In this document: piece by piece, positions 18,983 through 61,874 of the stretch
Layout of the letters: each line of letters begins with the position of its first letter
Position numbering within the stretch: the stretch's first letter is position 1
Assembly (NCBI GenBank): GCA_964548925.1
Contig: CAZJTM010000002.1
Coordinates: forward strand, 10,814 to 74,813
Direction: 5' to 3'
Length of the DNA stretch: 64,000 nucleotides
Source: an uncultured Verrucomicrobiota bacterium
GTDB lineage: Bacteria; Verrucomicrobiota; Verrucomicrobiia; Limisphaerales; MWDV01
Made by a program: the position numbers and the translations under genes
Notes under the pieces: generated by a model
Databases searched by the model: none
What the model saw: only the letters and a program-made list of their open reading frames with translations
Told to the model about the DNA's origin: nothing

Positions 18983-21900
18983 TTACCAGCAGTTCTGCCA
19001 ACTGGTCCCATCATACACGCGCAGCTTGTGCAGAGCACTGTCGTAGTAGAGGTCGCCCTCGCCCGGGCTGCTGGGGGCGGAACTGCGCGGCTGCAGGCGC
19101 ATCACATCGCTCACGTGCAGTGTGCGCGCCGGAGCCGGCGTCCCGATGCCGACGAGGTTGTTGTTGATGGTCACGGCGGCGCTGCCTGAGCTGTTTTGCA
19201 GCAGCAGCTTGCTGCCGGCGCCGGAGCGGATCACGAAGTCGCCGGCCGACGCATTCGCGCTGTATTGCCCGGAGGTGACGGCCGCGCTCAAATCCCCGCA
19301 GACGGTGCCGTTGGTGCTCAGTTGAATGGTCGGCGCGACCGCGCTGCCGTAGCCGTCCACACGCAACCCGTCCGCCGTGCTGGTGGCTCGCACGTCCAGA
19401 TGTTTTTGCGGTGTGATCGTGCCGATGCCGACAAAGCCGTTGCCCTTGATGGTCACCAACTCGTTGCTGCCACCGGCATTGTCGAAGAAAGAGAAGCGGT
19501 CGCTGGCCGCGTTGAGGTGCAAGAGGAATTGGCCGGACTGCACGCCCAAGCCATACGAAGAGGCACCACCGCCCCACAAGGCCAGCTTGGTGTTGGCCAG
19601 GGTGTTGCCCAGTCCAACGGGGGCGGAGAAGGTGTTGGTGCCGGTGAAGACCTGGTTCGCGTTGAGCAAAGCAACGTTGGCCGAGAGCCGGGCGTCGGCC
19701 AGCGTGCCGGTCAAGTCGGCGGCGTCGAGGTTGGTCAACCCGCCGCCGTTGCCGGTGAACGCGCCGACGAAGGTGTTCGCCGCGTTAGTCAACGTCACCA
19801 CGCCGGCAAAACGATTTGAGCCAGTGAAGACTTGGTTCGTGTTGAGCAGAGCAACATTGGTCAGGCCCGCGCCGTTGCCTACGAAGGCCGTGGCGGTGAC
19901 CGTGCCGTTGACGTCCAGGGCCGAACGCGGCGACGGGGTGCCGATGCCGACCTGATTGTTGGCGGTGATCGCCAGTGCCGCGCCGCTTCCGCCGCTTTGC
20001 AGCAACAGTTTGTTGCCGGGGCCGGAGCGTATTACGAAGTCGCCGGGCGACGCATCCGTGCTGTAATTCCCGGCGGCGACGGCCACTCCCAATTCCCCGC
20101 TCACGGTGCCATTGGTGCTGAGTTGGATGGCTGGCGGATATCCATCGCCCTCGACCCGCAAGCCGTCAGCCGTGCCGTGTGCCACGACCTCGAACCGTTT
20201 GTGTGGATTGTCCGTCCCGACGCCCACGTTGCCGGTGGAACGGTAGGCGTTGTCCCCCGACAGCGTCCAGACGCCAATGCCAGGATCCAGACTAGCGGTG
20301 GTAATGGAGCCTGCTTTCACGCCCTCGGCTAGAAGACCGGGGGCGTAGTGTTCCAGGTTGAACAGGTGCGCCGCCCCGGCATCGTACTTGCCTGTGTCGT
20401 CCCGATACGCTCCAATCACCGCCTGGTTGGTTCCGATCGCCACCAAGGAAATGCCGAAGTGGTCGCCGGCTTTCGGCGTGGGCTTGGTGAAGGTGGCAAG
20501 CAACGTGCCTTCCGTGCTGATGAGATACGCCGCCCCGGCATCGCTCGCACCCGCATCGGTCCCATGCGCCCCAATCAGCACCCGGTCGGTCCCCACCGCC
20601 GCGACGGCATAACCGAATTCGTCGCCGGCACCCGGTGTGGGATTGGTGAAGGTGAGCAACGTGCCATTCGTGCTGAACAGATACGCCGCCCCGGCGCCAC
20701 TGGGGCCCGCTGTGCCGTCCTGATGCGCCCCAATCACAACCAGTTCGGTCCCCACCGCGCTTACCGAAATGCCGAAGTTGTCGCTCGCAACCGGCGTGGG
20801 ATTGGTGAAGGTGGTGAGCAACGTGCCGCTGGTGCTGAACAGGTAGGCCGCCCCGGCATTGTCCGCGCCCGTGTCGTCGCGATAAGCTCCGATCAGCACC
20901 CGATCGGTCCCCACCGCCGCCACAGAATAGCCGAAGTTGTCGTCGGCGACCGGCGTGGGATTGGTGAACGTGGTGAGCAACGTGCCGTCCGTGCGGAGCA
21001 GGTACGCCGCCCCGGCATCGGTCGCGCCGGTGTCGTCGCGATACGCCCCAATCAGCACCTGGTCGGTGCCCACCGCCGCCACAGAATAGCCGAAGTAGTC
21101 GCTGGTTGCCGGGGTGGGATTGGTAATCGTCGTGGCGAGGAACCAATTGAGCGCTGTGGCCATCTTGCCCGCCGTCACCGCGCCGTCGGCCAGTTGATCC
21201 GATCCCACCGCTCCTGACGCAAGCATCGTACTGGTGATGCTGCCAGCGGCAAAGTTGTTGGTCGAGAGGGTGCCCGTGAGTTGAGAGGCCGGCAGCGTCC
21301 CGCTCAGACTGCCCGCCGTCGTCGCGGTGGCCGCTTGCATGGCATACGGCACCGCTTGGATCGGCCGCCGCGGACTCAGCGTGGAGTAAGCGCCCGTCTC
21401 CGCGCCGGGCCGCAGTTCGATCTCCAGCCAGCGGTCGTCGCCACTGAACACGCTGGCGCCAAAGTCCAGCACGACGTTGAACAGCCCGTTGGTCAGCGCC
21501 ACGTCGTCCGCCGTGACCGTCGAACCGACCTGGTTGCCGCCGCTGGCCGCGTCGTAAATCGTAAATCGTAGATCGCAAATGCCCGTGGCCGGCGTGCCGC
21601 TGTCGCGCAGGCGGCCCTGGTAGGTGAAGGCGGTGCTTTGGGCGACGGAGGAGAGCCGAGAGATGAGGGTTGCGAGGAGAAGCAGCACCAGGAGGGCGGG
21701 CCGCAAATCCGAAATCCGAAATCCGAAATCCCAAACAAATCCGAAGCCCGAAGTTCGAAAGGCCCGCGGCGTGTGCGCCGCATTCGGAGTCCCGGCTTCA
21801 ACCGGCGGGGCGTCCAGCGCACTCGACGCTTGAGTCCGGCCACACGGCCCGCTGGCTGAAGGCGGGACTCCAAGCCGAGCCGGCATCTCCCGCGAGGCGC

Positions 21901-21994
21901 TTCGGCCTTCGGTGTTCGGGCTGCGTTCGGATTTCGGATTTCGGATTTCGGATTGCCACTCGCTCCGGGTGGCCAGGGTAGGTTTTGTTTTCAT
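18983..21994 (-). CDS. Large secreted FG-GAP repeat / tail-fibre-like protein
   Basis: TAFTYQGRL N-domain, five FG-GAP repeats, repeated VGIGT..P motifs. ATGA overlap with the upstream regulator's stop. Confidence 0.8.
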   Translation of the reverse strand: MKTKPTLATRSEWQSEIRNPKSERSPNTEGRSASREMPARLGVPPSASGPCGRTQASSALDAPPVEAGTPNAAHTPRAFRTSGFGFVWDFGFRISDLRPALLVLLLLATLISRLSSVAQSTAFTYQGRLRDSGTPATGICDLRFTIYDAASGGNQVGSTVTADDVALTNGLFNVVLDFGASVFSGDDRWLEIELRPGAETGAYSTLSPRRPIQAVPYAMQAATATTAGSLSGTLPASQLTGTLSTNNFAAGSITSTMLASGAVGSDQLADGAVTAGKMATALNWFLATTITNPTPATSDYFGYSVAAVGTDQVLIGAYRDDTGATDAGAAYLLRTDGTLLTTFTNPTPVADDNFGYSVAAVGTDRVLIGAYRDDTGADNAGAAYLFSTSGTLLTTFTNPTPVASDNFGISVSAVGTELVVIGAHQDGTAGPSGAGAAYLFSTNGTLLTFTNPTPGAGDEFGYAVAAVGTDRVLIGAHGTDAGASDAGAAYLISTEGTLLATFTKPTPKAGDHFGISLVAIGTNQAVIGAYRDDTGKYDAGAAHLFNLEHYAPGLLAEGVKAGSITTASLDPGIGVWTLSGDNAYRSTGNVGVGTDNPHKRFEVVAHGTADGLRVEGDGYPPAIQLSTNGTVSGELGVAVAAGNYSTDASPGDFVIRSGPGNKLLLQSGGSGAALAITANNQVGIGTPSPRSALDVNGTVTATAFVGNGAGLTNVALLNTNQVFTGSNRFAGVVTLTNAANTFVGAFTGNGGGLTNLDAADLTGTLADARLSANVALLNANQVFTGTNTFSAPVGLGNTLANTKLALWGGGASSYGLGVQSGQFLLHLNAASDRFSFFDNAGGSNELVTIKGNGFVGIGTITPQKHLDVRATSTADGLRVDGYGSAVAPTIQLSTNGTVCGDLSAAVTSGQYSANASAGDFVIRSGAGSKLLLQNSSGSAAVTINNNLVGIGTPAPARTLHVSDVMRLQPRSSAPSSPGEGDLYYDSALHKLRVYDGTSWQNCW
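21705..21954. repeat. Nested palindromic element in frame: heptamer (AATCCGA)n arms around a GGAGTCCC-family palindrome
   Basis: aaatccgaaatccgaaatccgaaatc at 21705; ttcggatttcggatttcggatttcggatt ending 21954; inner ggagtcccggcttcaaccgg / ggctgaaggcgggactcc. Confidence 0.88.
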
Positions 21995-22344
21995 AGTTGT
22001 GAAGCCGCTTCCACGATCCGCGTCACGGTGGAGAGGTTTTCTTTGAGGACATAGCCGCAAGCGCCGGCTTCCTGTGCCGCCCGGCGCAAATCAGGCTCGT
22101 CGTATTGGGTGACGATGAGAATCCGTGCGTCGGGGAACCGGGCCTTGATCTGGCGCGTGGCGGCCAGTCCGCTGGTCGGCTTCATGCGCAAATCCATGAG
22201 GACCCAATCCGGCCGTTGCGCCGCATAGGCCGCGACGGCCGCGTCACCGTCGTCGGCTTCGCAGAAGTCGGTGGCCACCCCCGCGACTGTCTGCCGGAGC
22301 ATCTGCCGCATGCGGGCGTCGTCATCTGCGATCAGGACTTTCAT
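21991..22344 (-). CDS. Single-domain response regulator
   Basis: KVLIADDD, DWVLMDLRM, ACGYVLKE. Alternative start 22356. Confidence 0.9.
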   Translation of the reverse strand: MKVLIADDDARMRQMLRQTVAGVATDFCEADDGDAAVAAYAAQRPDWVLMDLRMKPTSGLAATRQIKARFPDARILIVTQYDEPDLRRAAQEAGACGYVLKENLSTVTRIVEAASQL

Positions 22345-22439
22345 TTTGGACCGCATCGTTGTCCCAGAAAACCGGGCGACCGGGAATTCGAGTGAATGCG
22401 CAGAACCGGCTACGTGGGAATACGCAGAGAAGTTTTCGA

Positions 22440-22572
22440 TTGGCGATTCCCGATTTGCGATTTGCCGAGCGTCTGCTGCGCTCGACCGGTCCTGACGGCG
22501 GACGCACCCGCACCGCCAAGCCGACGCAGGCACCGCTCACTGCGGCGCCAATCGCAAATGGGAAATCGCAAA
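22440..22572. repeat. Inverted repeat with heptamer (AATCGCA-type) arms
   Basis: ttggcgattcccgatttgcgatt versus reverse complement of 22550-22572 (tttgcgatttcccatttgcgatt). Confidence 0.8.
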
Positions 22573-22574
22573 GC

Positions 22575-23234
22575 CTACAACTGCCCTTTGTGATCGAAGG
22601 CGAAGCGGAGCAGGCTGTGGCTGCCGCTCAACTCCAGTTTGGTGGAGATGTTCTGGCGGTGCGTTTCCACGGTGCGAACGCTGCATTCCAGCAGCGCGGC
22701 GATCTCCTTGCTGGTGCGGTCTTGGCTGATGAGCTTGAGAATCTGCCGTTCCGTGGGGGTGAGCCGGTCCAAACCCGGTTTCTGCGCGCGCAACGAGGCC
22801 GCGGCGGCACCGCGCCGCACGAGCGCGCCGGACAATGCCGGGCTGATGAAACAGTGCCCCGCCGCCACTTGATGAATGGCTTGGAGCAACTCGGTGACCG
22901 CGCTCTCTTTCAGCAAATAGCCTTTCACGCCCAGGTCCAGAGCTTCGTTCAGCAGCGCCTCCTCCGGGTCCATCGTGAGGATGATCAGGGCCACCGGCAG
23001 GGGCTGCTCGCTGAGCGCGCGGGCCACCCGCAGACCGCTGCGCTTGGGCATGTGAATGTCCAACACCGCCACCGTCGGGCGGAGTGCCTGGATCAATCGC
23101 CACACTTCCTCGCCGTCACCCGCCTCGCCTGCCAGGCGCAACGCGGGGTCGCCGGCGATAATGTCGCACAACCCGCGCCGGAAGATCGGGTGGTCATCGG
23201 CGATTAGAACGGTGATGCGATCCGTGGTGTTCAT
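22575..23234 (-). CDS. NarL/LuxR family response regulator
   Basis: LIADDHPIFRRGL, LDIHMP, LTPTERQIL...TVETHRQNI. Confidence 0.93.
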   Translation of the reverse strand: MNTTDRITVLIADDHPIFRRGLCDIIAGDPALRLAGEAGDGEEVWRLIQALRPTVAVLDIHMPKRSGLRVARALSEQPLPVALIILTMDPEEALLNEALDLGVKGYLLKESAVTELLQAIHQVAAGHCFISPALSGALVRRGAAAASLRAQKPGLDRLTPTERQILKLISQDRTSKEIAALLECSVRTVETHRQNISTKLELSGSHSLLRFAFDHKGQL

Positions 23235-23312
23235 CGTGATCTACCAGTGCGATCATCTACCGAACGCGACCGGAAAAGCAACGCGCTTTGACGGAATGGC
23301 GCCCCGCCCCGG

Positions 23313-26300
23313 CTAAAGGCGGGACTCCGAACGACGGGGCTCCGAACGTGTTCCCGAACGCTGAAGCGGCACGTCCACGGTTAACTGTGTGCCCTGACCA
23401 GGCTGGGCGTGGAGGTGCAAGCGACCGCCCAGGATGCGCGCACGCTCCGCCATCTGACGCAGACCCAAGCCTCCTCGGTCGGGTGCGGCGGATTGAGCGG
23501 GATCAAAGCCGCGACCATTGTCCACAATCTCGAGCCGCAGCCGCGCGGGGGTTCGCGTGAGCGTCACCTTGGCCTCGGAAGCACCCGCGTGTTTGATGAT
23601 GTTGTTCAGGCTCTCCTGGATGATCCGGAACAAGTTGATCTCAAATTCCGCCGGCAAGAGGCCGTCCACGTCGTCCAGTTCGACGCTGACGCGCAATCCG
23701 CCGGATTGCCCGGCCTTCTCCAGCATGGCGGCCGTGGCTTTGGTAAACCCCAGTTCGTCGAGCAGAGATGGGCGAAGGTTGTGGCTGATGCGGCGCACCT
23801 GTTGCAGCGCCTGCTTGGCGGTAGCGGAAATGTCATTCAACCGCACGACCGTCGCCGGGGGATTCTCGCTCTGGCCCAGTCCAAACTGCGCCTGGTTCGC
23901 GATCACCAACAAGTCTTGCCCCAAGCCATCGTGCAGTTCGCCGGCAATCCGTTGACGCTCGCTCTCCTGCGACGCGATCAACTGGCGGGCGAATGCTTCC
24001 TGAGCAGCACGCGCGCGCCGGAGGCGGCGCTGGCGGCTCTCGTGCCAGCCGAGCGCGGCACCGCACATCCCGAACACGACCAGCGCGCGAAACCACCACG
24101 TCTTCCACCACGGCGGCAGGACTTGGAGGCGCAAGCTCGTGCCGAGGTCGTTCCACACCCCGTCGTTGTTGCAGGCGGTCACCCGAAACTCGTAGCGACC
24201 CGGAGGAACGGCGGTGTAGTGGGCAGCTCGCCGCGCCCCGGCTTGTACCCAATCCTCGTCGAAGGGCTCCAACCGGTAGCGGAAGCGAACCTTCTCCGGC
24301 GCGACCAAGCTCAGACCGGTGAACCGGAATTCGATCCGATGGGTGCGCGGAGGCACCAAGAGGATTTGCGATTCTCGATTTGCGATTTGGGATTGGTCCG
24401 CAGTCCGTAGCGCGTGGTCAGCAGCAAGCCCTTCGTCGCCGGTTGCCGCCCCGCCGGGCCTCGGGTTTCTGCCGTCCGACTTCTGGCTACTAACTACTGA
24501 CCACTGACCACTGACTACGGGCTGCTCATCCAACACCACCTCTTCAATCACAACGGGCGGCGGCAGCCGATTGAAGGGGAGTTGGTTGGGATTCACGACC
24601 GCGGCCCCGTTGACGGTGGCAAACCACAGCCTGCCATCCTGGGCCTTGCAGCACGCCGGCTGGCTCGCCCCGACACAATCGGCGGTGCTCAGCCCGTCCG
24701 ACGGACCGAACACTTGCCACGCCACCGACTTTCGCTTCCCATCGAGGTATTCGTTCAGCGCCAGGCGGCTGACACGGATAATGCCGCGGTTGGAGCCGAT
24801 CCAGAGATTGTCCCGGTCATCTTCGAGCAGGTTGCCAATGGTGTCGGTCGGCAGGCCGTCCTTGGCGCCCGCAGTGGTGAAGCGGCCCTGCCTGAAGCGG
24901 CACAACCCGCCGTAAACCGTCCCAATCCAGAGGGTCTCTTCCTTGTCCAGGTAAAGCGAGGTCAGGTGGTTGGCCGCCAAACCGTCCTGTTGCGTGAAAT
25001 GGGTGAACCGATCCTGGCGCAGGCAGTTCAACCCGCCGCCGTCCGTCCCCACATACAGCGTACCGGACCGATCTTCGGCCAAGGCCACGACGGTGTCGCA
25101 GGACAAACCCTCCTGCGTCGAATAGCGCTTGAAGCGGCCACCTTCGTGACGCAAGAGGCCGTTCGCGCACCCGAGCCAAAGGGCGCCGCGGTGATCTTCC
25201 AACAAAGCGTGCGCGGTCATCAGGACCGGGGGGTCGCCGGCGAGGGTGTGGGGCGTTACGGCCTCTGCGTTCCACTGGAGGGCGACGTTGCCATAGAGCC
25301 CGATCCAGATCGCGCCTTGGCGGTCGGCGAGCACGGAGTAAGTCAGGAGGTACTTTTGCAGCGCGGCCGGTTCGGTCACGCGCTCCAACTTCCCGTCCGC
25401 CCAGGTGTGCAATCCGCCGCCGTTCACTCCGAACCACATCCGCCCTTGGCGATCCTGGGTCAGGGACATGATGACCTTGGGCCCGCTCTCCGTGCCGTAC
25501 ATTTGGAAAACCTGCGGACGGATGCGATGAAGCCCGCCCTGGCCGGTGCCAACCCAGAGACTCCCCTCGCGGTCCCGGAACAGGCAGTTCACGTAATTGT
25601 CAACCAAACCGTTGCCGACGCGCACCTGCTGCCACGCACCCTGCGCATCCAGGTGAAAGAGCCCCTTCGACCACCGCCCGGCCCAGAGCGTGCCTTGGCC
25701 GTCTTCCAGCAAACAATGCAGCAAGTCCGCCTGCGGAAGCGGCACCACGCGGGGCGAGAGTTTCCCCTGTTGCAGACGGTAAAGACCGTTGGTTGTCCCC
25801 AACCAATAACCCCCGGCTTGACTGACCGCCGCCGTATAGACCGTGAGGCTGACCACGTTGCTGGCATTTCCTTCCGCGTTCAAAACCGGGAAATCCACAA
25901 CCAGCGGCTGGGCGATCTTGCCCCGGCGCGCAACCCACCCCACACCCTCGTTCTGGAACAGGAAACGCGGCGGATCATCCGCGCTGAATCGAGCATCCAG
26001 CGGCCGCACTTGATCGTTCTTAATCTGGTGCCAGCCGCCTTTCCGGTCCTGGAGCAGCAGGCAAGCACCGGGCGAGTTGGGGTCGCCGAATCCGCTGACA
26101 AAACTGGCCGCGCCTTCCTTTTGGATCACGGTGAATTGCCCAGCCGCCATGCGCACCAGCCGGCCGGCCTCAGTGATGATCCAGAGCGCACCCTGTTCAT
26201 CCACCTGCAACCGGGTAATTCCGCGATCTCCCAGCGCGGGGGTGTTGCCGACGTGGAAAACCGTGAAACGGACCCCGTCGAAACGCGCCAAGCCGTTGAA

Positions 26301-26525
26301 CGTGCCGACCCAGAGATAACCGTCCGGGGTCTGAGCGATGGAAGTGACCGAGATTTGCGGCAGGCCCTCCTCGACCTGCCAAACGTCAATCGTGAAGTTG
26401 CCGGTATTCTTCGCAACGCCCGTTCCCCAACTCATCCCTGTGCTCAGAAGCAACCCCAAGATTGGCCGGGTGAGCTGTGCGATCCGGCGAGAGCACCACC
26501 GCAACAGTAGGCCAGGCGACAACAT
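23313..26525 (-). CDS. Sensor histidine kinase with Reg_prop beta-propellers, Y_Y_Y, HisKA_3, HATPase
   Basis: Repeated EDxxGxLWxGT, YTAVPPGRYEFRVTACNNDGVW, RIAGELHDGLGQ, DNGRGF, GLGL. Confidence 0.92.
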   Translation of the reverse strand: MLSPGLLLRWCSRRIAQLTRPILGLLLSTGMSWGTGVAKNTGNFTIDVWQVEEGLPQISVTSIAQTPDGYLWVGTFNGLARFDGVRFTVFHVGNTPALGDRGITRLQVDEQGALWIITEAGRLVRMAAGQFTVIQKEGAASFVSGFGDPNSPGACLLLQDRKGGWHQIKNDQVRPLDARFSADDPPRFLFQNEGVGWVARRGKIAQPLVVDFPVLNAEGNASNVVSLTVYTAAVSQAGGYWLGTTNGLYRLQQGKLSPRVVPLPQADLLHCLLEDGQGTLWAGRWSKGLFHLDAQGAWQQVRVGNGLVDNYVNCLFRDREGSLWVGTGQGGLHRIRPQVFQMYGTESGPKVIMSLTQDRQGRMWFGVNGGGLHTWADGKLERVTEPAALQKYLLTYSVLADRQGAIWIGLYGNVALQWNAEAVTPHTLAGDPPVLMTAHALLEDHRGALWLGCANGLLRHEGGRFKRYSTQEGLSCDTVVALAEDRSGTLYVGTDGGGLNCLRQDRFTHFTQQDGLAANHLTSLYLDKEETLWIGTVYGGLCRFRQGRFTTAGAKDGLPTDTIGNLLEDDRDNLWIGSNRGIIRVSRLALNEYLDGKRKSVAWQVFGPSDGLSTADCVGASQPACCKAQDGRLWFATVNGAAVVNPNQLPFNRLPPPVVIEEVVLDEQPVVSGQWSVVSSQKSDGRNPRPGGAATGDEGLAADHALRTADQSQIANRESQILLVPPRTHRIEFRFTGLSLVAPEKVRFRYRLEPFDEDWVQAGARRAAHYTAVPPGRYEFRVTACNNDGVWNDLGTSLRLQVLPPWWKTWWFRALVVFGMCGAALGWHESRQRRLRRARAAQEAFARQLIASQESERQRIAGELHDGLGQDLLVIANQAQFGLGQSENPPATVVRLNDISATAKQALQQVRRISHNLRPSLLDELGFTKATAAMLEKAGQSGGLRVSVELDDVDGLLPAEFEINLFRIIQESLNNIIKHAGASEAKVTLTRTPARLRLEIVDNGRGFDPAQSAAPDRGGLGLRQMAERARILGGRLHLHAQPGQGTQLTVDVPLQRSGTRSEPRRSESRL

Positions 26526-41029: not shown

Positions 41030-42010
41030 ATGAACACAGGTTTGTCGGAGCAGGTGCAGGCCACGGCGGCATGGGTCAAGACCCTGCGCGAGGAAATCGC
41101 GGGCGTCATCGTGGGTCAGGAGCAACTGATTGATCGGTTGCTCGTCGGGTTGCTGGCGAACGGCCACGTCCTGCTGGAAGGCGTGCCCGGCCTGGCCAAA
41201 ACGCTTTCCGTGCGCGTGCTGGCGGCGGCGATTCAGGCCAGCTTTCACCGCATCCAGTTCACGCCCGACCTGTTGCCCGCCGACATCGTAGGCACGCTCA
41301 TTTACAGTCCGCAGGACGGCAAATATCACGCCACCAAAGGGCCGGTCTTCGCCAACTTCGTGCTGGCCGACGAAATCAACCGCGCGCCGGCCAAGGTGCA
41401 ATCGGCGTTGCTCGAAGCCATGCAGGAACGCCAGGTCACCCTCGGCGGCGAAACCCTGCCCTTGCCGTCGCCGTTCCTCGTGCTCGCCACGGAGAACCCC
41501 ATTGACCAGGAAGGCACGTATCCGCTCCCCGAGGCGCAGGTGGATCGCTTTATGTTCAAGGTGTTGCTGGACTATCCGGCGTTCGACGAAGAGCGGCGCA
41601 TCCTGGATCGCATGGCGTTCACCGCGCCGGAAATGCGCATCAAGCCGGTCATCGGGCTGGAGGAGATCTTCCGCACCCGCAAGCTGGTGGATCAGATTCA
41701 CGTGGACGACAAGGTGCGCGATTACATCGTCCACGTGGTCTTCGCCACCCGCAAGCCGGAGCAATACAAGCTCGACGTGAAACACTTCATCCAGTTCGGC
41801 GCGTCGCCGCGGGCCACGATCTACCTGACGTTGGCGGCCCGGGCCTGGGCGCTGTTGCAGGGCCGCGCCTACGTCACGCCGGAAGACGTGAAGAGCATCG
41901 GCCCGGACGTGCTCCGCCACCGCATCATCCTCACCTACGAAGCCGAGGCCCAGGCGGTGACGACGGACGCGATCATCCGCAAGGTGTTCAATGCGGTGCC
42001 AGTGCCATGA
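41030..42010 (+). CDS. moxR: MoxR-family AAA+ ATPase
   Basis: EGVPGLAKT, RIQFTPDLLPAD, LADEINRAPAKVQSALLEAMQE. Confidence 0.95.
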   Translation: MNTGLSEQVQATAAWVKTLREEIAGVIVGQEQLIDRLLVGLLANGHVLLEGVPGLAKTLSVRVLAAAIQASFHRIQFTPDLLPADIVGTLIYSPQDGKYHATKGPVFANFVLADEINRAPAKVQSALLEAMQERQVTLGGETLPLPSPFLVLATENPIDQEGTYPLPEAQVDRFMFKVLLDYPAFDEERRILDRMAFTAPEMRIKPVIGLEEIFRTRKLVDQIHVDDKVRDYIVHVVFATRKPEQYKLDVKHFIQFGASPRATIYLTLAARAWALLQGRAYVTPEDVKSIGPDVLRHRIILTYEAEAQAVTTDAIIRKVFNAVPVP

Positions 42011-42011
42011 T

Positions 42012-42570
42012 GCAAAACCCGAGATTCGAAATCCGAAATCCGAAACAAGCTCGAATTCCGAATATCGAAACCCCGCGCGCCAAGACCTAACCATGCCGCC
42101 CCTCTGGCCACTCCCCATGAACCTACCCAAGGATTCAAAGCGCCCAAGGATTCCTCGCCAATCCCTGAACGTTTTGAATCCCTGGAAACCCAAGCCCGGG
42201 TTCAAGGGTTCAAAGCGGGAACTTGCTGGGCGAAATCTATTCACGAACCTCCCCGTCTGGAGTCCCGGCTTAAGCCGGTTCGGCGTGCCGCGTGGCTCGG
42301 TTGCGGCAACGGCTGAAGCCGGGACTCCAAACGGCGGAAGCCGGCTCTGGAACGCACAAACCGGCAGGACAAATTCGTGTTGCATTTGCACCACGAAACT
42401 TTCCAGCTTGGACGTCGGGAGGTTCAGGGCGAGAGACGGGTTCCCGTGCATGCCGCCGACTCAGGGCGACTGCTGCTCATTTTCGGATTTCGACCGTCGG
42501 CAGCGTTTCGGGCTTTGGCTTTCGAGATTCGGATTTGTTTCGGATTTCGGATTTCGAGCTTCGGATTTGC
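42012..42570. repeat. Multi-level nested palindromic composite element
   Basis: Outer 23-bp perfect IR tcgaaatccgaaatccgaaacaa; middle ctccccatgaacct / aggttcagggcgagag; inner tggagtcccggcttaagccgg / cggctgaagccgggactcca. Confidence 0.88.
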
Positions 42571-42574
42571 CCAC

Positions 42575-43588
42575 ATGACTCTCTCCGAACTCCTCGAAAC
42601 CGTCCGCCGCGTCGAGGTGCGCACCAACCGCCTGGTCAACGACACCATGGTGGGCGCGTACCTCAGCCATTTCCGTGGGCGGGGCATGGACTTCGAGGAA
42701 CTCCGCGAATACATCCCCGGCGACGACGTGCGGGACATTGACTGGAACGTCACGAACCGGATGGGCCGCCCGTTTGTAAAGCGGTATCGCGAGGAACGCG
42801 AATTGGCCGTGGTGCTCGCCCTGGATGTCTCGGCCTCTTCGGCCTTCGGTTCGGCGGAGCGGACCAAGCGGGAATTCGCCACAGAGATCGCGGCGACGCT
42901 CGCGTTCTCCGCCACCCGCAGCAGCGACAAGGTGGCGTTGCTGTTGTTCTCCGATCAGGTGGAGCTTTATTTGCCACCGCGCAAAGGCCGCCGCCACATC
43001 TTGCGGCTTATTCGGGAGATGCTTTCGCTCCAGCCGCGGCGCGTGGGCACGGACATCCCGGCGGCGCTCACGTTCCTCAATCACGTCCTGCATCGGCGCG
43101 CGATCGTCTTTCTGCTGACGGATTTCCTGCACAGCTTCGGCACCCCACCGCCCGAGGGCCTTGACCCCGACAGCGTGCCGCCGCGCGTCCCGCCGGCAGA
43201 ACCAGTTTCTTCAGTCGAATACGGAACAGGCAGCGGGACGCATGGCAGCACGCTGTCGCACACGCGCGACGTCATCCAGGAAATCGGCCTGACAAATTCG
43301 CGGCACGACTTGGTGTGCGTCCACTTGCATGACCCGCGCGAAAGCGTGCTGCCGCCGGCGGGGTTGCTGACCATCGAAGACGCCGAAACGGGCGAGTTGC
43401 TAGAACTGGACTCGAACCGTGCCGGCGTGCGGCATCTGTTCGCGCGCACCAACGCCGACCGGCTCGCGGCGCTGGATCGCGCCCTGAGCCAGGCGGGTGT
43501 GGACACGTTGCGCTTGGGGACCACTGAGCCATTTGCCCATACGCTGCAACGGTTCTTTGAACTTCGACGGGGCAGGAGGCGCGGATGA
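42575..43588 (+). CDS. DUF58 family protein (with in-frame palindrome insert)
   Basis: GRGMDFEELREYIPGDDVRDIDWNVT, LDVSAS, RRAIVFLLTDF. Confidence 0.92.
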   Translation: MTLSELLETVRRVEVRTNRLVNDTMVGAYLSHFRGRGMDFEELREYIPGDDVRDIDWNVTNRMGRPFVKRYREERELAVVLALDVSASSAFGSAERTKREFATEIAATLAFSATRSSDKVALLLFSDQVELYLPPRKGRRHILRLIREMLSLQPRRVGTDIPAALTFLNHVLHRRAIVFLLTDFLHSFGTPPPEGLDPDSVPPRVPPAEPVSSVEYGTGSGTHGSTLSHTRDVIQEIGLTNSRHDLVCVHLHDPRESVLPPAGLLTIEDAETGELLELDSNRAGVRHLFARTNADRLAALDRALSQAGVDTLRLGTTEPFAHTLQRFFELRRGRRRG

Positions 43589-54409: not shown

Positions 54410-54517
54410 CCAAATGGCCAATCCGACGAAGCGCAGTTGGGCTGTGGAGCAATACCGGACGCAGACCGCGCTTGCTTCCGGCGTGTTGGGGAGAAACAAT
54501 TCCGCCCGGTTCAGGTC

Positions 54518-55360
54518 ATGAAAACCCGTAAAGCGCTTATCACTGCTGCTGGCCAAAGCCAGCGCACCTTGCCCCTGCAAACCCTCGTGGATCGCGACGG
54601 CGTGCCAAAGACCGCGCTGACAATCATCATCGAAGAGGCCCTCCAAGCCGGCATTGAGGAGGTCGGCGTGGTGATCGGCCCGAACGATGAGGACGCCTAC
54701 CGGGCCGCCACGGGGCCGCACTTGAAACGCGTCCGTTTCATTTCGCAGACCGCCCCGCTAGGTTACGGCCATGCGGTGGCATGTGGCCGGGAGTTCATTG
54801 GCAACGAAACGTTCCTGCTCCTCGTGGGCGATCATCTTTACGTCAGTGGCAACGCCAAGAACTGCGCGCAACAACTCGTCGCCGTGGCCGAGGCCGAATC
54901 CTGCGCCGTTTCCGCCGTGCAGGCGACCCATGAAAGCAAGCTGCCTTACTACGGCACGGTGGGCGGGCGGCGCGTGGTGGGCCGGCAGGGATTGTACGAG
55001 ATCGAGCGCGTTCTTGAAAAGCCGACCCCGACCGAGGCCGAGCAGCACTTGATCGTGCCGGGCCTGCGGGCGGGTCGCTACTTGTGCTTCTTCGGCATGC
55101 ATGTGCTGACGCCGGTGGTGATGGAGATGCTGGCGGAGGATGTTCGGCGTGTTGAAAAGGTGGGCGGCAACGTGCAACTGAGCCCGGCGCTAGCTCGTCT
55201 GGCCGAGCGCGAGCGTTACCTCGCCTGTGAACTGCACGGACGGCGTTACGACATCGGGGCGAACTATGGCCTCTTGACGGCCCAGCTTGCCTTGTCCTTG
55301 AGCGGCAAGGACCGCGACGAAGTGCTGACGCAATTGGTCGAGTTGCTGGCTCAACAATAG
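54518..55360 (+). CDS. GalU-like sugar-phosphate nucleotidyltransferase (atypical signature)
   Basis: [29 protein letters not shown]. Confidence 0.8.
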
Positions 55361-55367
55361 CGCTCCG

Positions 55368-58300
55368 ATGGCTGGCCAACTCTCGCAACTGATCACGGCC
55401 TCGGATCCGGCGATCCGCGACCAATCGCTCGACACCCTTTGTGCCAGCGCCTCAGCCGCCGCATTGCTGCAGGAATGCGAAGCGTTGGACCAGTTTCGCC
55501 GCGCCAGCGACAACCTGTACGAGCGAGTCCGGGCGCTGTTCTTCCTCTACGCCATCCACCGCTTTCATCTGCCGGCGAGGCTGAATGACGTCGCCGGCAC
55601 GCCGGGCCTGATCCCGTTTCACGGGTATGAACATTTGCTCAACCGGCGTTTCGAGGAAGCAATCGAGTGTTTTCTCGCCGCCCAGGCCCAACAAGGTCCC
55701 AGCGACGGCATCTCCAGTGCGCTGGCGGCGGCGTACCATCGCTTGGCGTTTCAGACCCTGGCCAATCAAGTCCGCCGCAGCGTGCGCACAGTGCGTGGCA
55801 ACCAGTGGATGTTCCGCATGGGCCACCCCGCTGACCAACCGCTGCGCCTCCGCCCGGAACTGCTGGAACGCGCAGCCGATGGTTCATATCCGATCTTGCG
55901 CGAGCGCACGCCCGTGCGCATGGACCTTACCCACTGCGGCTGGAGCGACATCTTTTTCCTCGGCATGGATTATCCCGAGGGCGCAAAGGTGCTCAACGTC
56001 TCGATTGACCTCGGCGTGCATGGGCGCGACGCCTCACCGCGCCCGCCCGTGGAGGCCTACCTGCGCGTCATCGAAGAACCGCTGCTGCGGCTGGTGAGCG
56101 TGGACCTCGGCTGCGCCGCGGACATCACAAACCTCGCCGAGGTGTTCGACTTCGCGAAGGACTATCTCGGCTTGCTCAAGGCGGCAGTCATTGCGTCGGG
56201 GATCGTGCCGCCGGGCATTGAAGGCTCGGGACAAAGCCTCGCGGATCTGCTCGCCCGAATCGTCGGGGGCGGACGCGGTTTGGAAATCGTCAGCCGTGTG
56301 AACGACATTCCGAAAGGCTCGCGGCTCGCAGTGTCCACGAATCTGCTCGCTGCGCTCATCAGCGCGTGCATGCGGGCGACCGGCCAAGCGCGTTCGCTCA
56401 CCGGCCAGCTTGAAGAGAACGAGCGACGGATTGTGCTCGCCCGGGCGTTGCTCGGCGAATGGCTCGGCGGCTCTGGCGGCGGTTGGCAGGATTCCGGCGG
56501 CGTGTGGCCGGGCATGAAGCTCATCGAGGGCGCGCTGGCGACGGAAGGTGATCCGGAATTCGGCGTGAGCCGGGGCCGGCTCATGCCCACTCACCGCATT
56601 TTCACCGAGAGCGATTGCTCCGCCGGCACGCGCGCGAAACTCCAGCAGAGTTTGGTGCTCGTTCACGGCGGCATGGCCCAGAATGTCGGCCCAATTCTGG
56701 AGATGGTCACCGAGAAATATCTGCTCCGCTGCGGCCCCGAGTGGCAGGCGCGGTTGAGCATGCTCGGCATTCTCGACGAGATTCTGTCGGCCCTGAAACG
56801 TGGCGACGTGCCGGCGATCGGTGCCGCAACCACGCGCAACTTCCGTCAGCCGATTCAGGCGATCATTCCCTGGGCCTCAAACCACTACACCGAGACGCTC
56901 ATCGCCAAAGCGCAAGCAGCGTTCGACCGCGATTTTTGGGGCTTCTGGATGCTCGGGGGCATGAGCGGCGGCGGCATGGGCTTCATCTTCGCCCCGGAGC
57001 GCAAGGCCGAGGCGCAGACGCGATTGCAGGAAATCATGTCGCGCACCAAGCAGGAGTTGCAGCACGCCCTGCCGTTCGCAATGGACCCCGTGGTCTATGA
57101 CTTTGCGATCAACGAACGCGGCACGTTCGCCGACTTGCTCTTAGGCGATGCCGCGCTGATGCCGGGCGGCTACTACGCACTCATCGCGCCGCCGCTGCTC
57201 AAACAGGATCGTAACACCCTGTCCCCGTTGCGCCGGACCGAGCTCGACAAATTCGGGGCCGCCTGTCGCACCCAGCCGGAGTTGCGTGGCATGGTCCAGA
57301 CCCTTTTTGACGCCATGTTGCCGCGCGGGCGGGCGGAGAGCTCGACCGGCAAATCCCTCGAAGCGTTGCTTGCGGAATATGGGTTCGACCGCGCGCAGCA
57401 CGAGCACATTCGCGCCGATCTCAAGGAGGGGCGCATCGGTCTGGCGCAAAACCGGCTGCCTCCCAGCGTGGTGATTGAGGACGTGAGGCCCGCTGATGTG
57501 ACGGTCGTGGCGAATCTGAAATCCGAGATTTCAGATTCCAAATCGCGTGGCTTGCAAGCCCTCCAGCGCGGCGAGGTCGCCGTGGTCACGTTGGCGGCGG
57601 GAGCGGGCTCGCGCTGGACGCAGGGCGCGGGTGTGGTGAAGGCGTTGCACCCCTTCTGCCGGCTGGCGGGCAAGCACCGGACGTTCATCGAGACGCATCT
57701 GGCCAAGAGCCGGCGCATCTCACGGGCCGTGGGCGCATGGCTGCCACACGTGTTCACGACCAGTTACCTTTCGCACGAGCCAACGCACGAGTTCCTATCT
57801 CGCCACAACGACTACGGCTATGAAGGCCCCGTGCGGCTCTCGCCCGGCAAGTTCATCGGCCTGCGCCTGGTGCCGACGGAGCGTGACCTCCGTTTCATGT
57901 GGGAGGAGATGCCGCAGCAAATCCTCGACGAGCAGGCGCAGAAGGTCCGCGAGAGTCTGCATGCCGCGCTCATCGGCTGGGCGCGCGCCGCCGGTGAAGC
58001 GAGCGATTACACGGACAACCTGCCGCTCCAATGCCTCCATCCGGTCGGCCACTGGTTCGAGCTTCCCAACCTGCTCCGTAACGGCGTGCTGGGCCGGTTG
58101 CTGGCCGAACGCCCGCAGTTGCGCTGGTTGATGCTGCACAACATTGACACGCTCGGTGCGGACGTTGACCCCGCGTTGCTCGGACAACACATCGGAAGCG
58201 GCGCGGGCCTCACCTTCGAGGTGATCACCAAGCGCATCGAGGATCGCGGCGGCGGTTTGGCGCGCGTCAACGGGCGCGTCCGGCTCGTCGAGGGATTGGC

Positions 58301-58724
58301 CATGCCGCGCGAGGAGGTCGAGTTCCGGCTGTCCTACTACAACTCGAACACCTGCTGGATGGATCTCGACAAAGTACTTGCGGTGTTCGGGCTAACGCGC
58401 AACGACATCCTGGCCACGAGCGACGGCGACGCGGGGGCCGACGCGAAGGTTACAGCCGCCATCCGTGCGCTGGCGGCAAAGATGCCGACGTACGTGACGA
58501 TCAAAGACGTGAAGAAGCGTTGGGGGCACGGCCAGGAAGACGTGTTCCCGGTCTGCCAGTTCGAGAAACTGTGGGTGGATATGAGCGCCCTGCCCGAGAT
58601 TGACACACGCTTTCTGGTCGTGCCGCGGTTGCGCGGGCAACAGCTTAAGGATCAGGCCCAGCTTGACGGCTGGTTGCGCGACGGCTCGGCGGCCTATGTG
58701 GAATCGTTGTGTGAATGGTCGTGA
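55368..58724 (+). CDS. GHMP-kinase / UDP-sugar pyrophosphorylase fusion
   Basis: [32 protein letters not shown] (GHMP); [30 protein letters not shown] (UDPGP family). Confidence 0.82.
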
Positions 58725-58819
58725 TGGGACAGGCGGTACAGTTTTTTCAAGCCCGGCCGCCCGTTTAGTGTGATGCGCCGGCTTTACGCTCGCCCCTTGT
58801 CTGCGTTACAGTGCCCCGC

Positions 58820-60232
58820 ATGAATACTCGATTGAGCCGCCGTTCCTTCCTGAAGCAAACCGCACTGACCGCCACTGTGGTTTCCGCCTCTCCGTTCCAC
58901 ATTCTCCGCGCCGCCAATGCCGGCGAGAAAGTCCGCGTCGTCCAGATTGGCTGTGGCGGGCGCGGGATGTCCCATCTCAGCGCCACGTTGAACGAGGAAC
59001 TGGTCGCCATTGTGGACGTGGACGAAAAACGTCACGCCGCCGTGCAGAAGTGGCTGGCCGACAAACAGCGGCCCGCGGACAAGGTGCAGGTGTTCACAGA
59101 TTACCGAAAGCTGTTCGACAAGCTTGCCAAGAGCTTCGACGCCGTGTTCATCGCCACGCCGAACCACCAGCACGCCCTGCCCGCGCTGATCGCCATGCAG
59201 TTGGGCAAGCACGTGTATTGCGAAAAACCGGTCTGCCAGAACATCGGCGAGGCCCGCGCCCTGCGCGCGATGGCCGCCAAATCCAAGGTCGCCACGCAGA
59301 TGGGCAACCAGGGCCATTGCGAAGAAGGCTACCGCCGCCTGTGCGAATACATCTGGGCTGGCGTGATTGGCAAAGTCACCGAGACGCACAGTTGGACGAA
59401 CCGTGCCAACGGCGGTGAAGGCCCGCGCCCGCCCGCCGAACCCGTGCCCGCCGGCCTGCATTGGGACGAGTGGATCGGCCCCGCGCCGTATCGCGATTTC
59501 CACAGCGACCTCCACCCGCATTCGTGGCACGGCTGGTTTGACTTCGGCAACGGTTCGATCGGCAACATGGGCTGCCACGTGCTTGACGGCGTCTTCTGGG
59601 CGCTCAAGGTCGAGCATCCCACAAGCGTCGAGGTCGAAACCATGCGCGGCGGCAGTAAGGAGCGCTATCCCATGGGCAGCCGCGTCCGCTGGGACGTGCC
59701 GGCGCGGGGCGACCTGCCGCCGCTCAGGGTCTATTGGTACGAGGGTCTGAATCCCACCGCCAAGGGCCGCCCCCAGGGCAACCTGCGCATGGCCCAGGGC
59801 GACGACCGCCATTTCCCGCAGCTCCTCCTCGATCTCCGCAAGCAATACCCCGACGAGGAACTCGACAGTGGCGACAGCGGCACGCTCTACGTGGGCGAGA
59901 AGGGCGTCATCTTTACGGGTACCTACGGCGACAAAATGCACATCGTCCCGTGGGCAAAGATGCGCGAAACACCCGAACCGCCCAAGACGCTGCCCCGCCC
60001 GAAGGGCATCTTTGTGGACTTCTTGGAGGCCGTCCGCGCCGGCAAGACCGAGACGGCCGTGAGTTTCGATTACGGCACGCGGCTGACGGAGTTCGCCATC
60101 CTCGGCAATCTCGCGATGCAGGCCGGCGCCGGCAAGAAGGTGATGTGGGACGGGCGGAAGATGAAGGTCACCAACCTGCCGGAGTTGAACGCCTGGGTCA
60201 GCCGCAAACCGCGCAAGGGCTGGAAGGCCTGA
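58820..60232 (+). CDS. Tat-exported Gfo/Idh/MocA oxidoreductase
   Basis: SRRSFLK, IGCGGRG, VYCEKP, GNMGCH. Confidence 0.92.
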   Translation: MNTRLSRRSFLKQTALTATVVSASPFHILRAANAGEKVRVVQIGCGGRGMSHLSATLNEELVAIVDVDEKRHAAVQKWLADKQRPADKVQVFTDYRKLFDKLAKSFDAVFIATPNHQHALPALIAMQLGKHVYCEKPVCQNIGEARALRAMAAKSKVATQMGNQGHCEEGYRRLCEYIWAGVIGKVTETHSWTNRANGGEGPRPPAEPVPAGLHWDEWIGPAPYRDFHSDLHPHSWHGWFDFGNGSIGNMGCHVLDGVFWALKVEHPTSVEVETMRGGSKERYPMGSRVRWDVPARGDLPPLRVYWYEGLNPTAKGRPQGNLRMAQGDDRHFPQLLLDLRKQYPDEELDSGDSGTLYVGEKGVIFTGTYGDKMHIVPWAKMRETPEPPKTLPRPKGIFVDFLEAVRAGKTETAVSFDYGTRLTEFAILGNLAMQAGAGKKVMWDGRKMKVTNLPELNAWVSRKPRKGWKA

Positions 60233-60276
60233 CCTTCAAGGCCGGGGACTACTGCCATAACCCGACGCTGGATGCC

Positions 60277-60549
60277 ATGCCACACCTAACGAAGAACGAG
60301 TGGAAAGGGCTCTGGGCAATCCTCTGGCGCGTGTTGGTCCTTGGTCCGATCGTCGGCTTATTTGGGTTGGCTTTGCTCGTCATGATCATCGCTGTGTTTT
60401 TGGGGCCGCCCGCCTACGCGGCATTTGCCTTTCTTTCGGGGGATTGGTTGCTGGGAATCGTCGCACTCGCAGGTTGGAGTGTTGTGCTGTGTTTTAGACG
60501 ACCGTTTCTGCGTTGGACGTTGGAAGGCATCGAACACGCAAGCATCTGA
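60277..60549 (+). CDS. Small hypothetical membrane protein
   Basis: 90-aa, mostly hydrophobic ORF (MPHLTKNEWKGLWAILW...). Confidence 0.5.
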   Translation: MPHLTKNEWKGLWAILWRVLVLGPIVGLFGLALLVMIIAVFLGPPAYAAFAFLSGDWLLGIVALAGWSVVLCFRRPFLRWTLEGIEHASI

Positions 60550-60558
60550 ATGCGAGGA

Positions 60559-61143
60559 TCAGCGTCTGCTGTCGCCGGCGCAACCAAGCGGCTTCGCACT
60601 CTCGGTTCCGAACGGCTCCAAGCGGACAAGCGTCTCACCCGTTTCGAGTTCCTCGAGGAGTTCAGAAAAAGTGTTTTTCTGACCAGACAGCACGAACTTC
60701 GGAGCAATCTCGCTGAGCGGTTGAAGGACGAACCGGCGCAAGTGGGCCCGCGGATGCGGCAAGGTCAGGCTGGGTGTGTTGCGTGTCTGGTTGCCAAAGG
60801 AGATTAAGTCCAAGTCCAAGGGGCGCGGCTCGTTGAGGATTTGCTTGGGCTGCCGGCCAAACTCCTTCTCCAGCGCCTGAAGCTTCGCGAGCAGGGACTC
60901 AGGCGTTTCTCCGGCGCGCGGCGCGAACCCCACGACCGCGTTTACAAATGGTGGCGAGCTAGGGGGGCAGTCCACCGGCGAGGTTTGCCAGAGGGAGGAT
61001 TTCAGCAGGGGCGCATCGGAAAACTGCTGCAAGCGGTCCATCGCATTGCGGATAATCCGCACCGGGTCGCCCAGATTCGACCCGAGAGCCACAAAAGCCA
61101 TTTGCCCGTCCTCGGACTTCGGACTTCGGACCTCGGACCTCAT
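60559..61143 (-). CDS. folK: 2-amino-4-hydroxy-6-hydroxymethyldihydropteridine diphosphokinase
   Basis: ALGSNLG, FVNAV, RPLDLDLI, LPHPR..LRRFVLQPL. ATGA overlap with dapB; alternative start 61101. Confidence 0.93.
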   Translation of the reverse strand: MRSEVRSPKSEDGQMAFVALGSNLGDPVRIIRNAMDRLQQFSDAPLLKSSLWQTSPVDCPPSSPPFVNAVVGFAPRAGETPESLLAKLQALEKEFGRQPKQILNEPRPLDLDLISFGNQTRNTPSLTLPHPRAHLRRFVLQPLSEIAPKFVLSGQKNTFSELLEELETGETLVRLEPFGTESAKPLGCAGDSRR

Positions 61144-61874
61144 CTCAGACCCAGCACATCCTGCATGTCGTAGAGCCCGGGCTGCTGCCTCACGACCCAG
61201 AGCGCCGCGCGGAATGCGCCGTTGGCGAAGGTTTCGCGGCTCGATGCCTTGTGCGTGAGTTCCACGCGCTCGCCTGGCGTCGCGAAGATGACGGTGTGAT
61301 CGCCGACCACGTCGCCGCCGCGAATGGCGTGAATGCCGATTTCTTCCGGCGTGCGCTCGCCCACCAGACCCTCGCGGCCGTGTCGTGCCACGCGCTTGAG
61401 TTGCTGCTGGCGCACGTCGGCAAGGATTTCCGCCAGCGACTTTGCCGTCCCGCTCGGGGCGTCCTTCTTGAGCCGATGGTGCATTTCGACAACTTCCAGA
61501 TCGTAGCCCGGGCCGAGAATCTCCGCCGCCTTGCGCGTCAGCCAAAAAAGAGTGTTGACGCCCGTCGAGAAGTTCGACGCCCAAACCATCGGAATTCGCG
61601 ATTTGAAATTGGCGATTTGAGATTGCTCCGCCGCGCCGTGCCCGGTCGTGCCGATGACCATCGCCTTTCCGTGCCCCGCGCAAAGCTCTGCAATGCCAGC
61701 GGTGGCACTGTGCGAACTGAAATCAATAACCACGTCGCAGCGGCCGACGATGGCCGCCAGGTCGTCGCCCTGGTCAATCTGGCCGACGACTTCGATTTCG
61801 CGATGGTTCGGGGTACAGGCCAGCAGCGCCTTGCCCATGCGGCCTTTCGATCCGGTGATGATGACTTTGGTCAT
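61140..61874 (-). CDS. dapB: 4-hydroxy-tetrahydrodipicolinate reductase
   Basis: GSKGRMG, IGTTG, EMHHRLKKDAPSGTA, THKASSR. Confidence 0.96.
   Translation of the reverse strand: MTKVIITGSKGRMGKALLACTPNHREIEVVGQIDQGDDLAAIVGRCDVVIDFSSHSATAGIAELCAGHGKAMVIGTTGHGAAEQSQIANFKSRIPMVWASNFSTGVNTLFWLTRKAAEILGPGYDLEVVEMHHRLKKDAPSGTAKSLAEILADVRQQQLKRVARHGREGLVGERTPEEIGIHAIRGGDVVGDHTVIFATPGERVELTHKASSRETFANGAFRAALWVVRQQPGLYDMQDVLGLR

Follow-up and report, generated by a model that had tools for sequence, protein, structure and literature searches.

A stretch of 64,000 nucleotides (nt) from an uncultured bacterium of the order Limisphaerales (Verrucomicrobia subdivision 3), part of contig CAZJTM010000002.1 of assembly GCA_964548925.1 and called the window in the following, carries tracts of tandem 7-nt units inside three protein-coding genes: dapB, a gene for a tail-fibre-like surface protein, and a third gene for a protein with a UDPGP-type domain. 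These tracts are best explained as members of a class of heptamer arrays found across the order, each about 33 nt long, whose slots have fixed positions, either in intercistronic gaps or, within proteins, in helices, strands, linkers and N-terminal tails. They are old orthologous slots evolving in concert and not fresh overwrites by the arms of mobile elements. The best explanation for this evolution, which we hold with moderate confidence, is copying from unit to unit in a 7-nt register, without net gain or loss and filtered by selection. The tracts had come up in a sequence-only reading of the window, which proposed that they overwrite native codons without changing protein length, and all three are present at the positions it gave (Table 1).

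Data set and scoring

The comparison DNA, 1.6 Mb in total, consisted of 160 orthologue loci, 80 of dapB from genomes and 80 of the third gene from metagenomes, to which six homologue loci were added (L-numbers designate loci). Periodicity was scored as the self-match of a sequence shifted by seven positions (lag 7), and a tandem-repeat scan (TRF) was also used. The test on coding sequences (CDS) covered 919 kb of confidently called CDS with trimmed 5' ends, and its synonymous shuffles retained each protein and the codon usage. The dapB tree was computed with the tract masked. Within-array similarity as a function of unit distance is biased by detection and was given little weight. Ten proteins of the window were scanned for domains.

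Excess of 7-nt periodicity

Seven tracts of the window match themselves at lag 7, compared with none or one at other lags and none in shuffled sequence. Among the relatives 112 tracts were found at lag 7 versus 1-17 at lags that are not multiples of seven; period 7 exceeds every other period there by about 10:1. In the CDS 18 strict tracts were counted versus 0.15 in the synonymous-codon shuffles, and none at lags 4, 5, 8, 10, 11 and 13. The sequence-only reading had turned on such an excess over codon-shuffled controls, and it is there. It shows that the tracts are real DNA features, and it supports a periodicity that belongs to the DNA and not to the protein or to codon usage. The motif RATTT-NN, three times in succession with at most one mismatch, occurs at 11 window sites versus 0.03 expected, among them the tracts of dapB and of the tail-fibre-like gene as well as the arms of the intergenic elements. 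It could be argued that the tracts arise by chance, or as a by-product of seven-residue protein patterns and codon usage, since both constrained slots have a seven-residue skeleton (isoleucines at i and i+7 in DapB, IYD...IYD in the tail-fibre-like protein). We find this hardly credible in view of the shuffles, of amino acids which differ by lineage while the DNA periodicity persists, and of the recurrence of the same arginine (CGA), phenylalanine (TTT) and isoleucine (ATT) codons in six distant homologues of the tail-fibre-like protein.

Perfect arrays cluster at 32-34 nt, which corresponds to five 5-nt cores with four 2-nt spacers (about 4.7 units), and array lengths drop sharply above 34 nt. 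At least 40 kinds of canonical unit occur in the data set, with TCACGCA being the unit of 12 of the 112 arrays of the relatives. TCACGCA, ATTTACG and AAATCCG are common to coding tracts and hairpin arms, and GATTT/AAATC cores are common to the tracts and the arms of intergenic hairpin elements; the resemblance to such arms which the sequence-only reading had noticed extends to the unit types themselves. The G+C content of the arrays is 44%, compared with about 60% over all loci, and they are free of G-runs (units AAATCGC, ATTTACG, GAATTCA, TCACGCA and others).

A fixed slot in dapB

Positions 61593-61624 of the window read aattcgcgatttgaaattggcgatttgagatt, and their minus strand translates to EQSQIANFKSRIP inside dapB. 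Between the GTTG motif and N(F/Y)S there are 22 residues in the window DapB and in all 80 orthologues, which are 71-83% identical. HMMER aligns the protein without gaps through the tract with 4ywj and 5tem (Pseudomonas and Vibrio chains, read residue by residue), and in the match with E. coli 1arz both sequences span 207 residues. The claim that this tract is length-neutral was borne out by every orthologue and by the solved structures.

Lag-7 periodicity is confined to a single site of dapB, nt 249-281 (33 nt), where 19 of the 81 sequences have at least 18 of 26 lag-7 matches; none has them elsewhere in the gene, and no other lag reaches 20. The window copy has 16 of 26 matches and is a decayed array, and the significance of this tract, like that of the tract in the third gene, rests on orthology with purer arrays. 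The unit at the dapB slot is AAATCGC (x4.7) in L019, with the peptide KSQIANRKSQIP, AAATCTC in L021, L071 and L072, TCACGCA in L001-L004 and separately in L020/L023, with the peptide KSRITHHASRIP, ATCAAAA in L009 and AATCGAA in L011. Such near-perfect arrays with differing units are scattered over the tract-masked tree: the sisters L019 and L021 both have arrays, L072 has an array and its sister L057 a decayed one, and L061 is periodic within an aperiodic clade. The boundaries of the slot are identical across lineages with different units.

Positions 2-4 of the unit (ATC) are invariant in the ten purest arrays and encode two conserved isoleucines seven residues apart, while positions 5-6 are GC, TC, AC, AA, GA, GG or CG and are uniform within a lineage. 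Units are 0.79-1.0 identical within an array versus 0.71 between lineages, and the peptides vary while the DNA stays periodic (SRITHHASRI versus SQIANRKSQI). At a protein identity of about 75% one expects synonymous sites to be saturated, so the perfect arrays cannot be relics and have been renewed in concert. A recent overwriting of native dapB codons is not what we see, as the slots are old and orthologous across the order and the window copy is decayed.

Slots at the folK and dapA junctions

The start of folK overlaps the stop of dapB (ATGA or GTGA). The window array that begins in the dapB stop codon lies in frame between two starts, the ATGA-coupled one (61143-61141) and the conserved one of FolK (61101), and is, from its frame, a possible N-terminal extension of FolK. 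In fifteen loci across the tree the ALGSN motif follows the dapB stop at a distance of exactly 50 nt; they include arrays with differing units (GAATTCA, GAAGTCC, GAGTGCG, GAAGTCA) as well as decayed copies, and every unit of the FolK slot opens with the GA found in the dapB stop codon. In L062 the slot is exactly 21 nt (three units, 7 aa) shorter than in its clade-mates, with about 1.7 units left.

This shorter slot bears on a rival explanation, namely that arrays grow in frame by three units (21 nt, 7 codons) and then lose an equal length by deletion, or pass through cycles of contraction and re-expansion. We consider this unlikely, even if 21 nt is the smallest in-frame product of 7-nt slippage, and cycling would also homogenise the units. 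It would account for L062, for the observed 33 nt as a 12-nt seed plus 21 nt, for the sharp fall of array lengths past 34 nt and for a second slot of the third gene, to which a TCACGCA array adds about 6 aa. It sits badly with the 81 DapB sequences, none of which differs in slot length, and with the ungapped solved DapBs; re-expansion from 1.7 units would require frameshifted intermediates (+7, +14) in an essential gene, and the slot boundaries are the same across lineages that have different units.

The basal gap at the dapA-dapB junction is 1-5 nt. Many lineages have hairpins there, composed of the stop, an array (4.7 units), a loop, the inverted array and the ATG, and in some of these hairpins the arms have 8-11-nt periods. 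In L029 and L042 the arms are made of 8-9-nt units (ACGCAAAG x4) and contain no heptamers, and array-built arms are consequently not strictly bound to period 7.

Some of these arrays could be kept for a function, as AT-rich and weakly structured mRNA after coupled starts, as hairpins that couple stop and start, or as slippage switches in the genes of surface proteins. Their low G+C content would suit such a role, many of them begin in a stop codon or coupled start or form the stop-array-loop-inverted array-ATG hairpins, the tail-fibre array lies not far from the 5' end of the gene for a surface protein, and a translational role has been proposed for TAACTGA repeats (MacGregor 2015, PMC4679880). 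We nevertheless hold it to be very unlikely. The dapB slot is situated 250 nt inside a housekeeping gene, arrays in gaps have no clear strand bias (A>T, 25 vs 13; G>C, 21 vs 16), unit number does not vary among four strains, and the sequence of the unit is not conserved, so that no sequence-specific binder fits. Binding of Rho and other strand-specific roles of the RNA were rejected on the same lack of a clear strand bias in gap arrays.

Coupling of folK to dapB by ATGA or GTGA was seen in the window (61101-61143, minus strand) and in L028, L030, L036, L040, L051, L061, L074 and L080; from the reading frames, FolK of these loci may have an array-encoded N-terminal extension of 11-14 residues, which makes its true start ambiguous. 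Two further families of hairpin repeats occupy the dapB-folK junction in other lineages, TCGTAGCAGCCGACGTGAGGAGGCTC...GAGCCTCCTCACGTCGGCTGCTACGA and the GACAGGCTTCCAGCCTGTC type (L011, L015, L020, L024, L033, about 3736-3820; L014, L018, L042, L047, L048, L053). Verrucomicrobial dapB loci were also met in metagenome-assembled genomes labelled Bifidobacterium, Akkermansia muciniphila, Limnocylindrales and Acidoferrum, which are probably mislabelled or contaminated bins.

The tail-fibre motif as a translated array

In the tail-fibre-like protein, which has 1,000 residues with FG-GAP_2 repeats and an N-terminal domain common to hundreds of proteins, positions 21552-21580 read tcgtaaatcgtaaatcgtagatcgcaaat and encode ICDLRFTIYD. 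The commonest form of this motif among 100 homologues is IYDLRFTIYD, and this is exactly the translation of a perfect (ATTTACG)n. Six homologues from different samples, at most 57% identical, have xYDLRF[T/A]IYD with 19-22 of 23 lag-7 matches, and they use the rare codons CGA, TTT and ATT for arginine, phenylalanine and isoleucine in genomes that average about 60% G+C. Three homologues with other variants of the motif are aperiodic, and distant relatives retain only x-Y-D-L-x-F-x-[LIV]-x-D. The length of the protein is unchanged by the tract, as had been claimed; the idea that native codons were overwritten fails here, for the tract encodes the consensus motif of the family and does not replace it. 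The array thus fills those positions which a seven-residue skeleton leaves free, and the consensus motif of the family may have originated from it.

The open reading frame (ORF) of this protein starts (21700-21993, minus strand) with MKTKPTLA as in the homologues, followed by about 92 in-frame codons of a palindromic element, and only then comes the hydrophobic signal-peptide core (ALLVLLLLATLI). As far as the frame suggests, either the element lies inside the signal peptide or translation begins at an internal GTG. Heptamer arrays (GAAGGCA / GAATTCA) are also found in the C-terminal coiled-coil region of the family (L161 3860-3897; P0004, P0006, P0054), where they translate as seven-residue repeats, e.g. 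RSQKAEF / RIQKLEA. The junction between the end of the tail-fibre-like gene and a cadherin-like gene (window 18865-18964) holds an 8-nt array (GCCGGTTC x4.5) and a 7-nt array (GGGTTTC x5). Phase variation was considered and rejected, as no array is present at the junction of a split tail-fibre gene (L164) and unit number does not change among strains.

A decayed array in an interdomain linker

The tract of the third gene encodes 11 residues and has 15 of 21 lag-7 matches, that is, it is a decayed array. It contains the sole hairpin of its kind in the window, which is perfect, as described from the sequence, and measures 12 bp (57512-57523 / 57527-57538, with a 3-nt loop), not 11. The linker differs in length by up to 30 residues among orthologues through ordinary indels, and in most of them it is two residues shorter; the nearest relatives keep both the slot and its length (L082, GATCTCA GATCGGA AATTTCA AATTTCA; L085, AATCTCA AATCTGA). 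The length neutrality that had been claimed for all three tracts accordingly holds for dapB and the tail-fibre-like protein, and is weak in this indel-rich linker. Ordinary indels, which the sequence-only reading had taken as a sign against itself, are present in the third gene and absent from the other two tracts. A second slot of the third gene, in a loop near residue 75, has TCACGCA arrays in three relatives and is then about six residues longer than in its shortest form, which shows that arrays in loops do add length.

Probable copying between units

Conservation of the slots, turnover of the units, length neutrality and variants common to several units were all observed. As is usual in concerted evolution, units are alike within a lineage and their deviations are common to units: 32% of the pairs of deviations from the array consensus match in position and base, versus 4.8% expected, and 23 of the 36 matching pairs are in adjacent units. 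This sharing, mostly between adjacent units, the presence in all units of nucleotides that selection pins in one of them, and the length neutrality together point to copying from unit to unit. A change in one unit would be copied to others, mostly to neighbours, in the 7-nt register when, in the course of replication or repair, the two strands pair briefly out of step by one unit; DNA synthesis or the correction of mismatches, followed by realignment of the strands, would amount to a short conversion that keeps the length. Selection would discard products which shift the frame, change a constrained length or replace a residue that is required. Nucleotides held constant in one unit in this way, such as the ATC of the DapB isoleucines, in the FolK slot the GA from the dapB stop codon, or the Y-D-L-F-I-D skeleton of the tail-fibre motif, would then recur in all units, while free positions would drift jointly and dictate the remaining amino acids. 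At sites of free length (loops, tails) arrays would gain or lose multiples of three units (21 nt). We infer the copying step, most likely misalignment and realignment (or short-patch conversion), as well as the reason for the register of seven. What survives of the templated replacement proposed in the sequence-only reading is length-neutral copying, which fits best with the neighbouring unit as template; a recent overwriting does not.

Several points weigh against copying between neighbours. The tests of adjacency and of shared variants are partly biased, arrays being detected by the similarity of neighbouring units. No intermediate or ongoing event was found among four related strains, of which contigs only were compared; single-base differences lie around their arrays, with none inside the dapB tract and no gains or losses of units, although contigs can hide rare variants, and turnover is consequently slow on the strain scale. 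The sharp array size of 32-34 nt is not predicted by simple neighbour copying. Sister lineages may differ at three to four of the seven positions in every unit (GAAGTCA in L074 versus GAATGCG in L080), and a switch of this kind is a large jump for stepwise spread. Finally, a few units recur at unrelated sites (TCACGCA in 12 of 112 arrays), which hints at a donor or at a sequence preference. The sharp size, the switches of whole arrays and the recurrence of units keep alive both expansion with equal deletion and the use of a template.

The template could be dedicated or ectopic, that is, a module of about 33 nt laid down by an enzyme (reverse transcriptase, nuclease, recombinase) or conversion from an array of the same genome. 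Perfect arrays that measure 32-34 nt whether they lie in a helix, a tail or a hairpin arm, the recurrence of TCACGCA, ATTTACG and AAATCCG at unrelated sites and in unrelated genomes, and the whole-unit switches between sister lineages are what such a module would produce. Still, the dapB tract has no second copy in the window at up to three mismatches, the scan of ten window proteins showed neither a reverse transcriptase nor a nuclease, a single genome contains many different units, and minority variants are mostly common to adjacent units, which points to local copying; we therefore think a template decidedly unlikely. A broader proposal would be a sequence-independent, length-measuring process, present in Limisphaerales and probably in other phyla, which writes or rewrites five-core modules of about 33 nt in a 7-nt register over existing DNA. 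It would be strong enough to create or hold motifs, IYDLRFTIYD being a fossil (ATTTACG)n, and to override weak protein preferences, as in the change from tyrosine to cysteine in the window copy; we regard it as quite unlikely. Copying between neighbouring units, filtered by selection, remains our preferred explanation.

Comparison with known repeats

Heptamer repeats in excess and with a preference for four units have been described by Rehm et al. 2015 (PMC4692102), for example GGGAATC in Xanthomonas and GGGGAYT in Nostoc, in a paper which cites Mrazek et al. 2007 and a hypothesis of slippage related to the polymerase footprint. Our arrays are like these repeats in their tandem 7-nt units, period-7 excess, about four units and inverted pairs, in their positions at or over stop codons and near starts, and in the turnover of length and sequence between related species. 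The repeats of Rehm et al. (PMC4692102) are, however, G-rich, proposed to form G-quadruplexes, with one dominant unit per genome, and under-represented in coding DNA, whereas those described here are AT-rich, of many coexisting kinds and in frame in conserved protein cores of unchanged length, and one slot carries different units in different lineages. The arrays lack the G-tract in each unit that a G-quadruplex would need. As in long simple sequence repeats, 7-nt units stand head to tail and are in excess over other unit lengths and over shuffles; variation in unit number of the slippage type was absent from the contigs of the four strains, and between species the 21-nt difference of L062 is the only one.

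Direct repeats of TAACTGA are known from Beggiatoaceae, cyanobacteria and Bacteroidetes (MacGregor 2015, PMC4679880). They too have two to six heptamer copies, mostly upstream of starts or overlapping stops, are occasionally translated, and are unexplained in origin and spread. Theirs is a single unit conserved across phyla, with coding copies only at protein ends (PMC4679880), whereas here there is no single unit, the slot is conserved and not the sequence, and the slots include the helix of an essential enzyme and a conserved domain motif. Among the at least 40 units only those of a kinase array in the window (CTACTGA / CCACTGA) resemble TAACTGA.

Mobile elements of the REP, REPIN or MITE kind share with the composite elements of the window the inverted arms, the location in intercistronic gaps and the differences between lineages at one junction. 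The coding tracts, by contrast, neither lengthen their genes nor show a target duplication, and the arms are themselves tandem arrays. The added length of a mobile insertion is missing in the dapB and tail-fibre tracts, and the ten window proteins scanned include no transposase or RAYT-like gene product. Diversity-generating retroelements do not match either, for there is no template copy in the window and no reverse transcriptase domain in the scanned proteins. Templated mutagenesis at quasi-repeats in E. coli proceeds by transient misalignment ('dislocation') or by template switching at quasi-palindromes. It would be similar to the process suggested here in that several changes are copied from a nearby imperfect repeat, the length is kept and the repeat is perfected. 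It is a laboratory mechanism acting at single sites, and to our knowledge it has not been found to maintain thousands of arrays or to shape motifs. The STRR (short tandemly repeated repetitive) heptamers of heterocystous cyanobacteria are cited in PMC4692102. They have other units than our arrays (CCCCAGT and others), are described as intergenic and have no known function; we know of no report of orthologous coding slots or concerted unit turnover among them. Several unit types per genome and short tandem arrays are common to them and to our arrays. In our literature search neither such arrays in Verrucomicrobia nor in-frame coding slots turned up, and we found no report on conserved coding slots with unit turnover, on length neutrality in an essential enzyme or on a family motif that equals the translation of an array.

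Consequences for coding sequences

From these results we infer that a DNA repeat process, and not a need of the protein, writes about ten amino acids at a slot. An essential enzyme can have about ten of its residues fixed by such a process, and a conserved domain motif can originate from it, which makes it a concrete case of molecular drive on bacterial coding DNA. The unexplained excess of 7-nt repeats in bacteria gains a tractable system in the 33-nt dapB slot with its many natural variants, and dapB function can be assayed by complementation in E. coli. Residues of a slot are not independent characters, and estimates of dN/dS and of covariation are misled by them. Arrays at ATGA junctions also blur the calling of start codons.

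Other arrays in the window

Table 1. Heptamer arrays, array-bearing elements and host genes in the window
Feature	Position	Strand	Remarks
Array ATTTGCG ATCTACG ATTTACG ATTTACG AC in tail-fibre-like gene	21552..21580	-	encodes ICDLRFTIYD; conserved motif, N-terminal domain
Composite palindromic element	21705..21954		in frame in 5' part of tail-fibre-like ORF
TTTGCGA-type array	22433..22465		gap upstream of single-domain response regulator gene
Two arrays in sensor histidine kinase	24363..24515	-	between propeller repeats and Y_Y_Y domain
Second composite element, same design	42015..42569		fills moxR-DUF58 gap
Third gene, 1118-aa protein with UDPGP-type domain	55368-58724		host of third tract
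Two forward and two inverted heptamers (AATCTGA AATCCGA / GATTTCA GATTCCA) + AATCGCG	57512..57547	+	inter-domain linker
Array (GA)GGTCC GAGGTCC GAAGTCC GAAGTCC GAGGAC	61107..61141	-	starts in dapB stop codon
dapB, 4-hydroxy-tetrahydrodipicolinate reductase, 244 aa	61140..61874	-	PDB matches to E 5e-63; 80 orthologues
Decayed five-core array CAATCTC AAATCGC CAATTTC AAATCGC GAATTCC in dapB	61593..61625	-	codons 84-94, QSQIANFKSRI; helix after GTTG motif
dapA-dapB gap, 33 nt	61875..61907	-	weak 7-nt periodicity (GAGAACG AAGAACG AGGACGA)

The two arrays of the sensor histidine kinase are of different types, GATTTGC x4.6 at 24363-24394 and an ACTGACC type at 24487-24515 (CTACTAA CTACTGA CCACTGA CCACTGA), and the latter is similar to two units, TAACTGA and TACTGAC, that have been described in Beggiatoaceae, cyanobacteria and candidate-phyla bacteria. 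The composite element in the tail-fibre-like ORF has a left arm of (AAATCCG)4 with decayed units, a right arm of (TTCGGAT)4 and a core hairpin GGAGTCCCGGCTTCA...GAAGGCGGGACTCC. In the element of the moxR-DUF58 gap the arms are of the AAATCCG type (42015-42075) and the TTTCGGA type (42505-42569), with the core hairpin at about 42260-42335. Footprints of target-site duplication were considered as an origin of the arrays and rejected, as the arms that flank the elements are inverted and not direct. An open frame of 195 codons (41991-42578, plus strand) begins 18 nt before the moxR stop, spans the whole second element and ends in an ATGA overlap with the DUF58 start (ATG at 42575), and it thereby bridges two normally adjacent genes.

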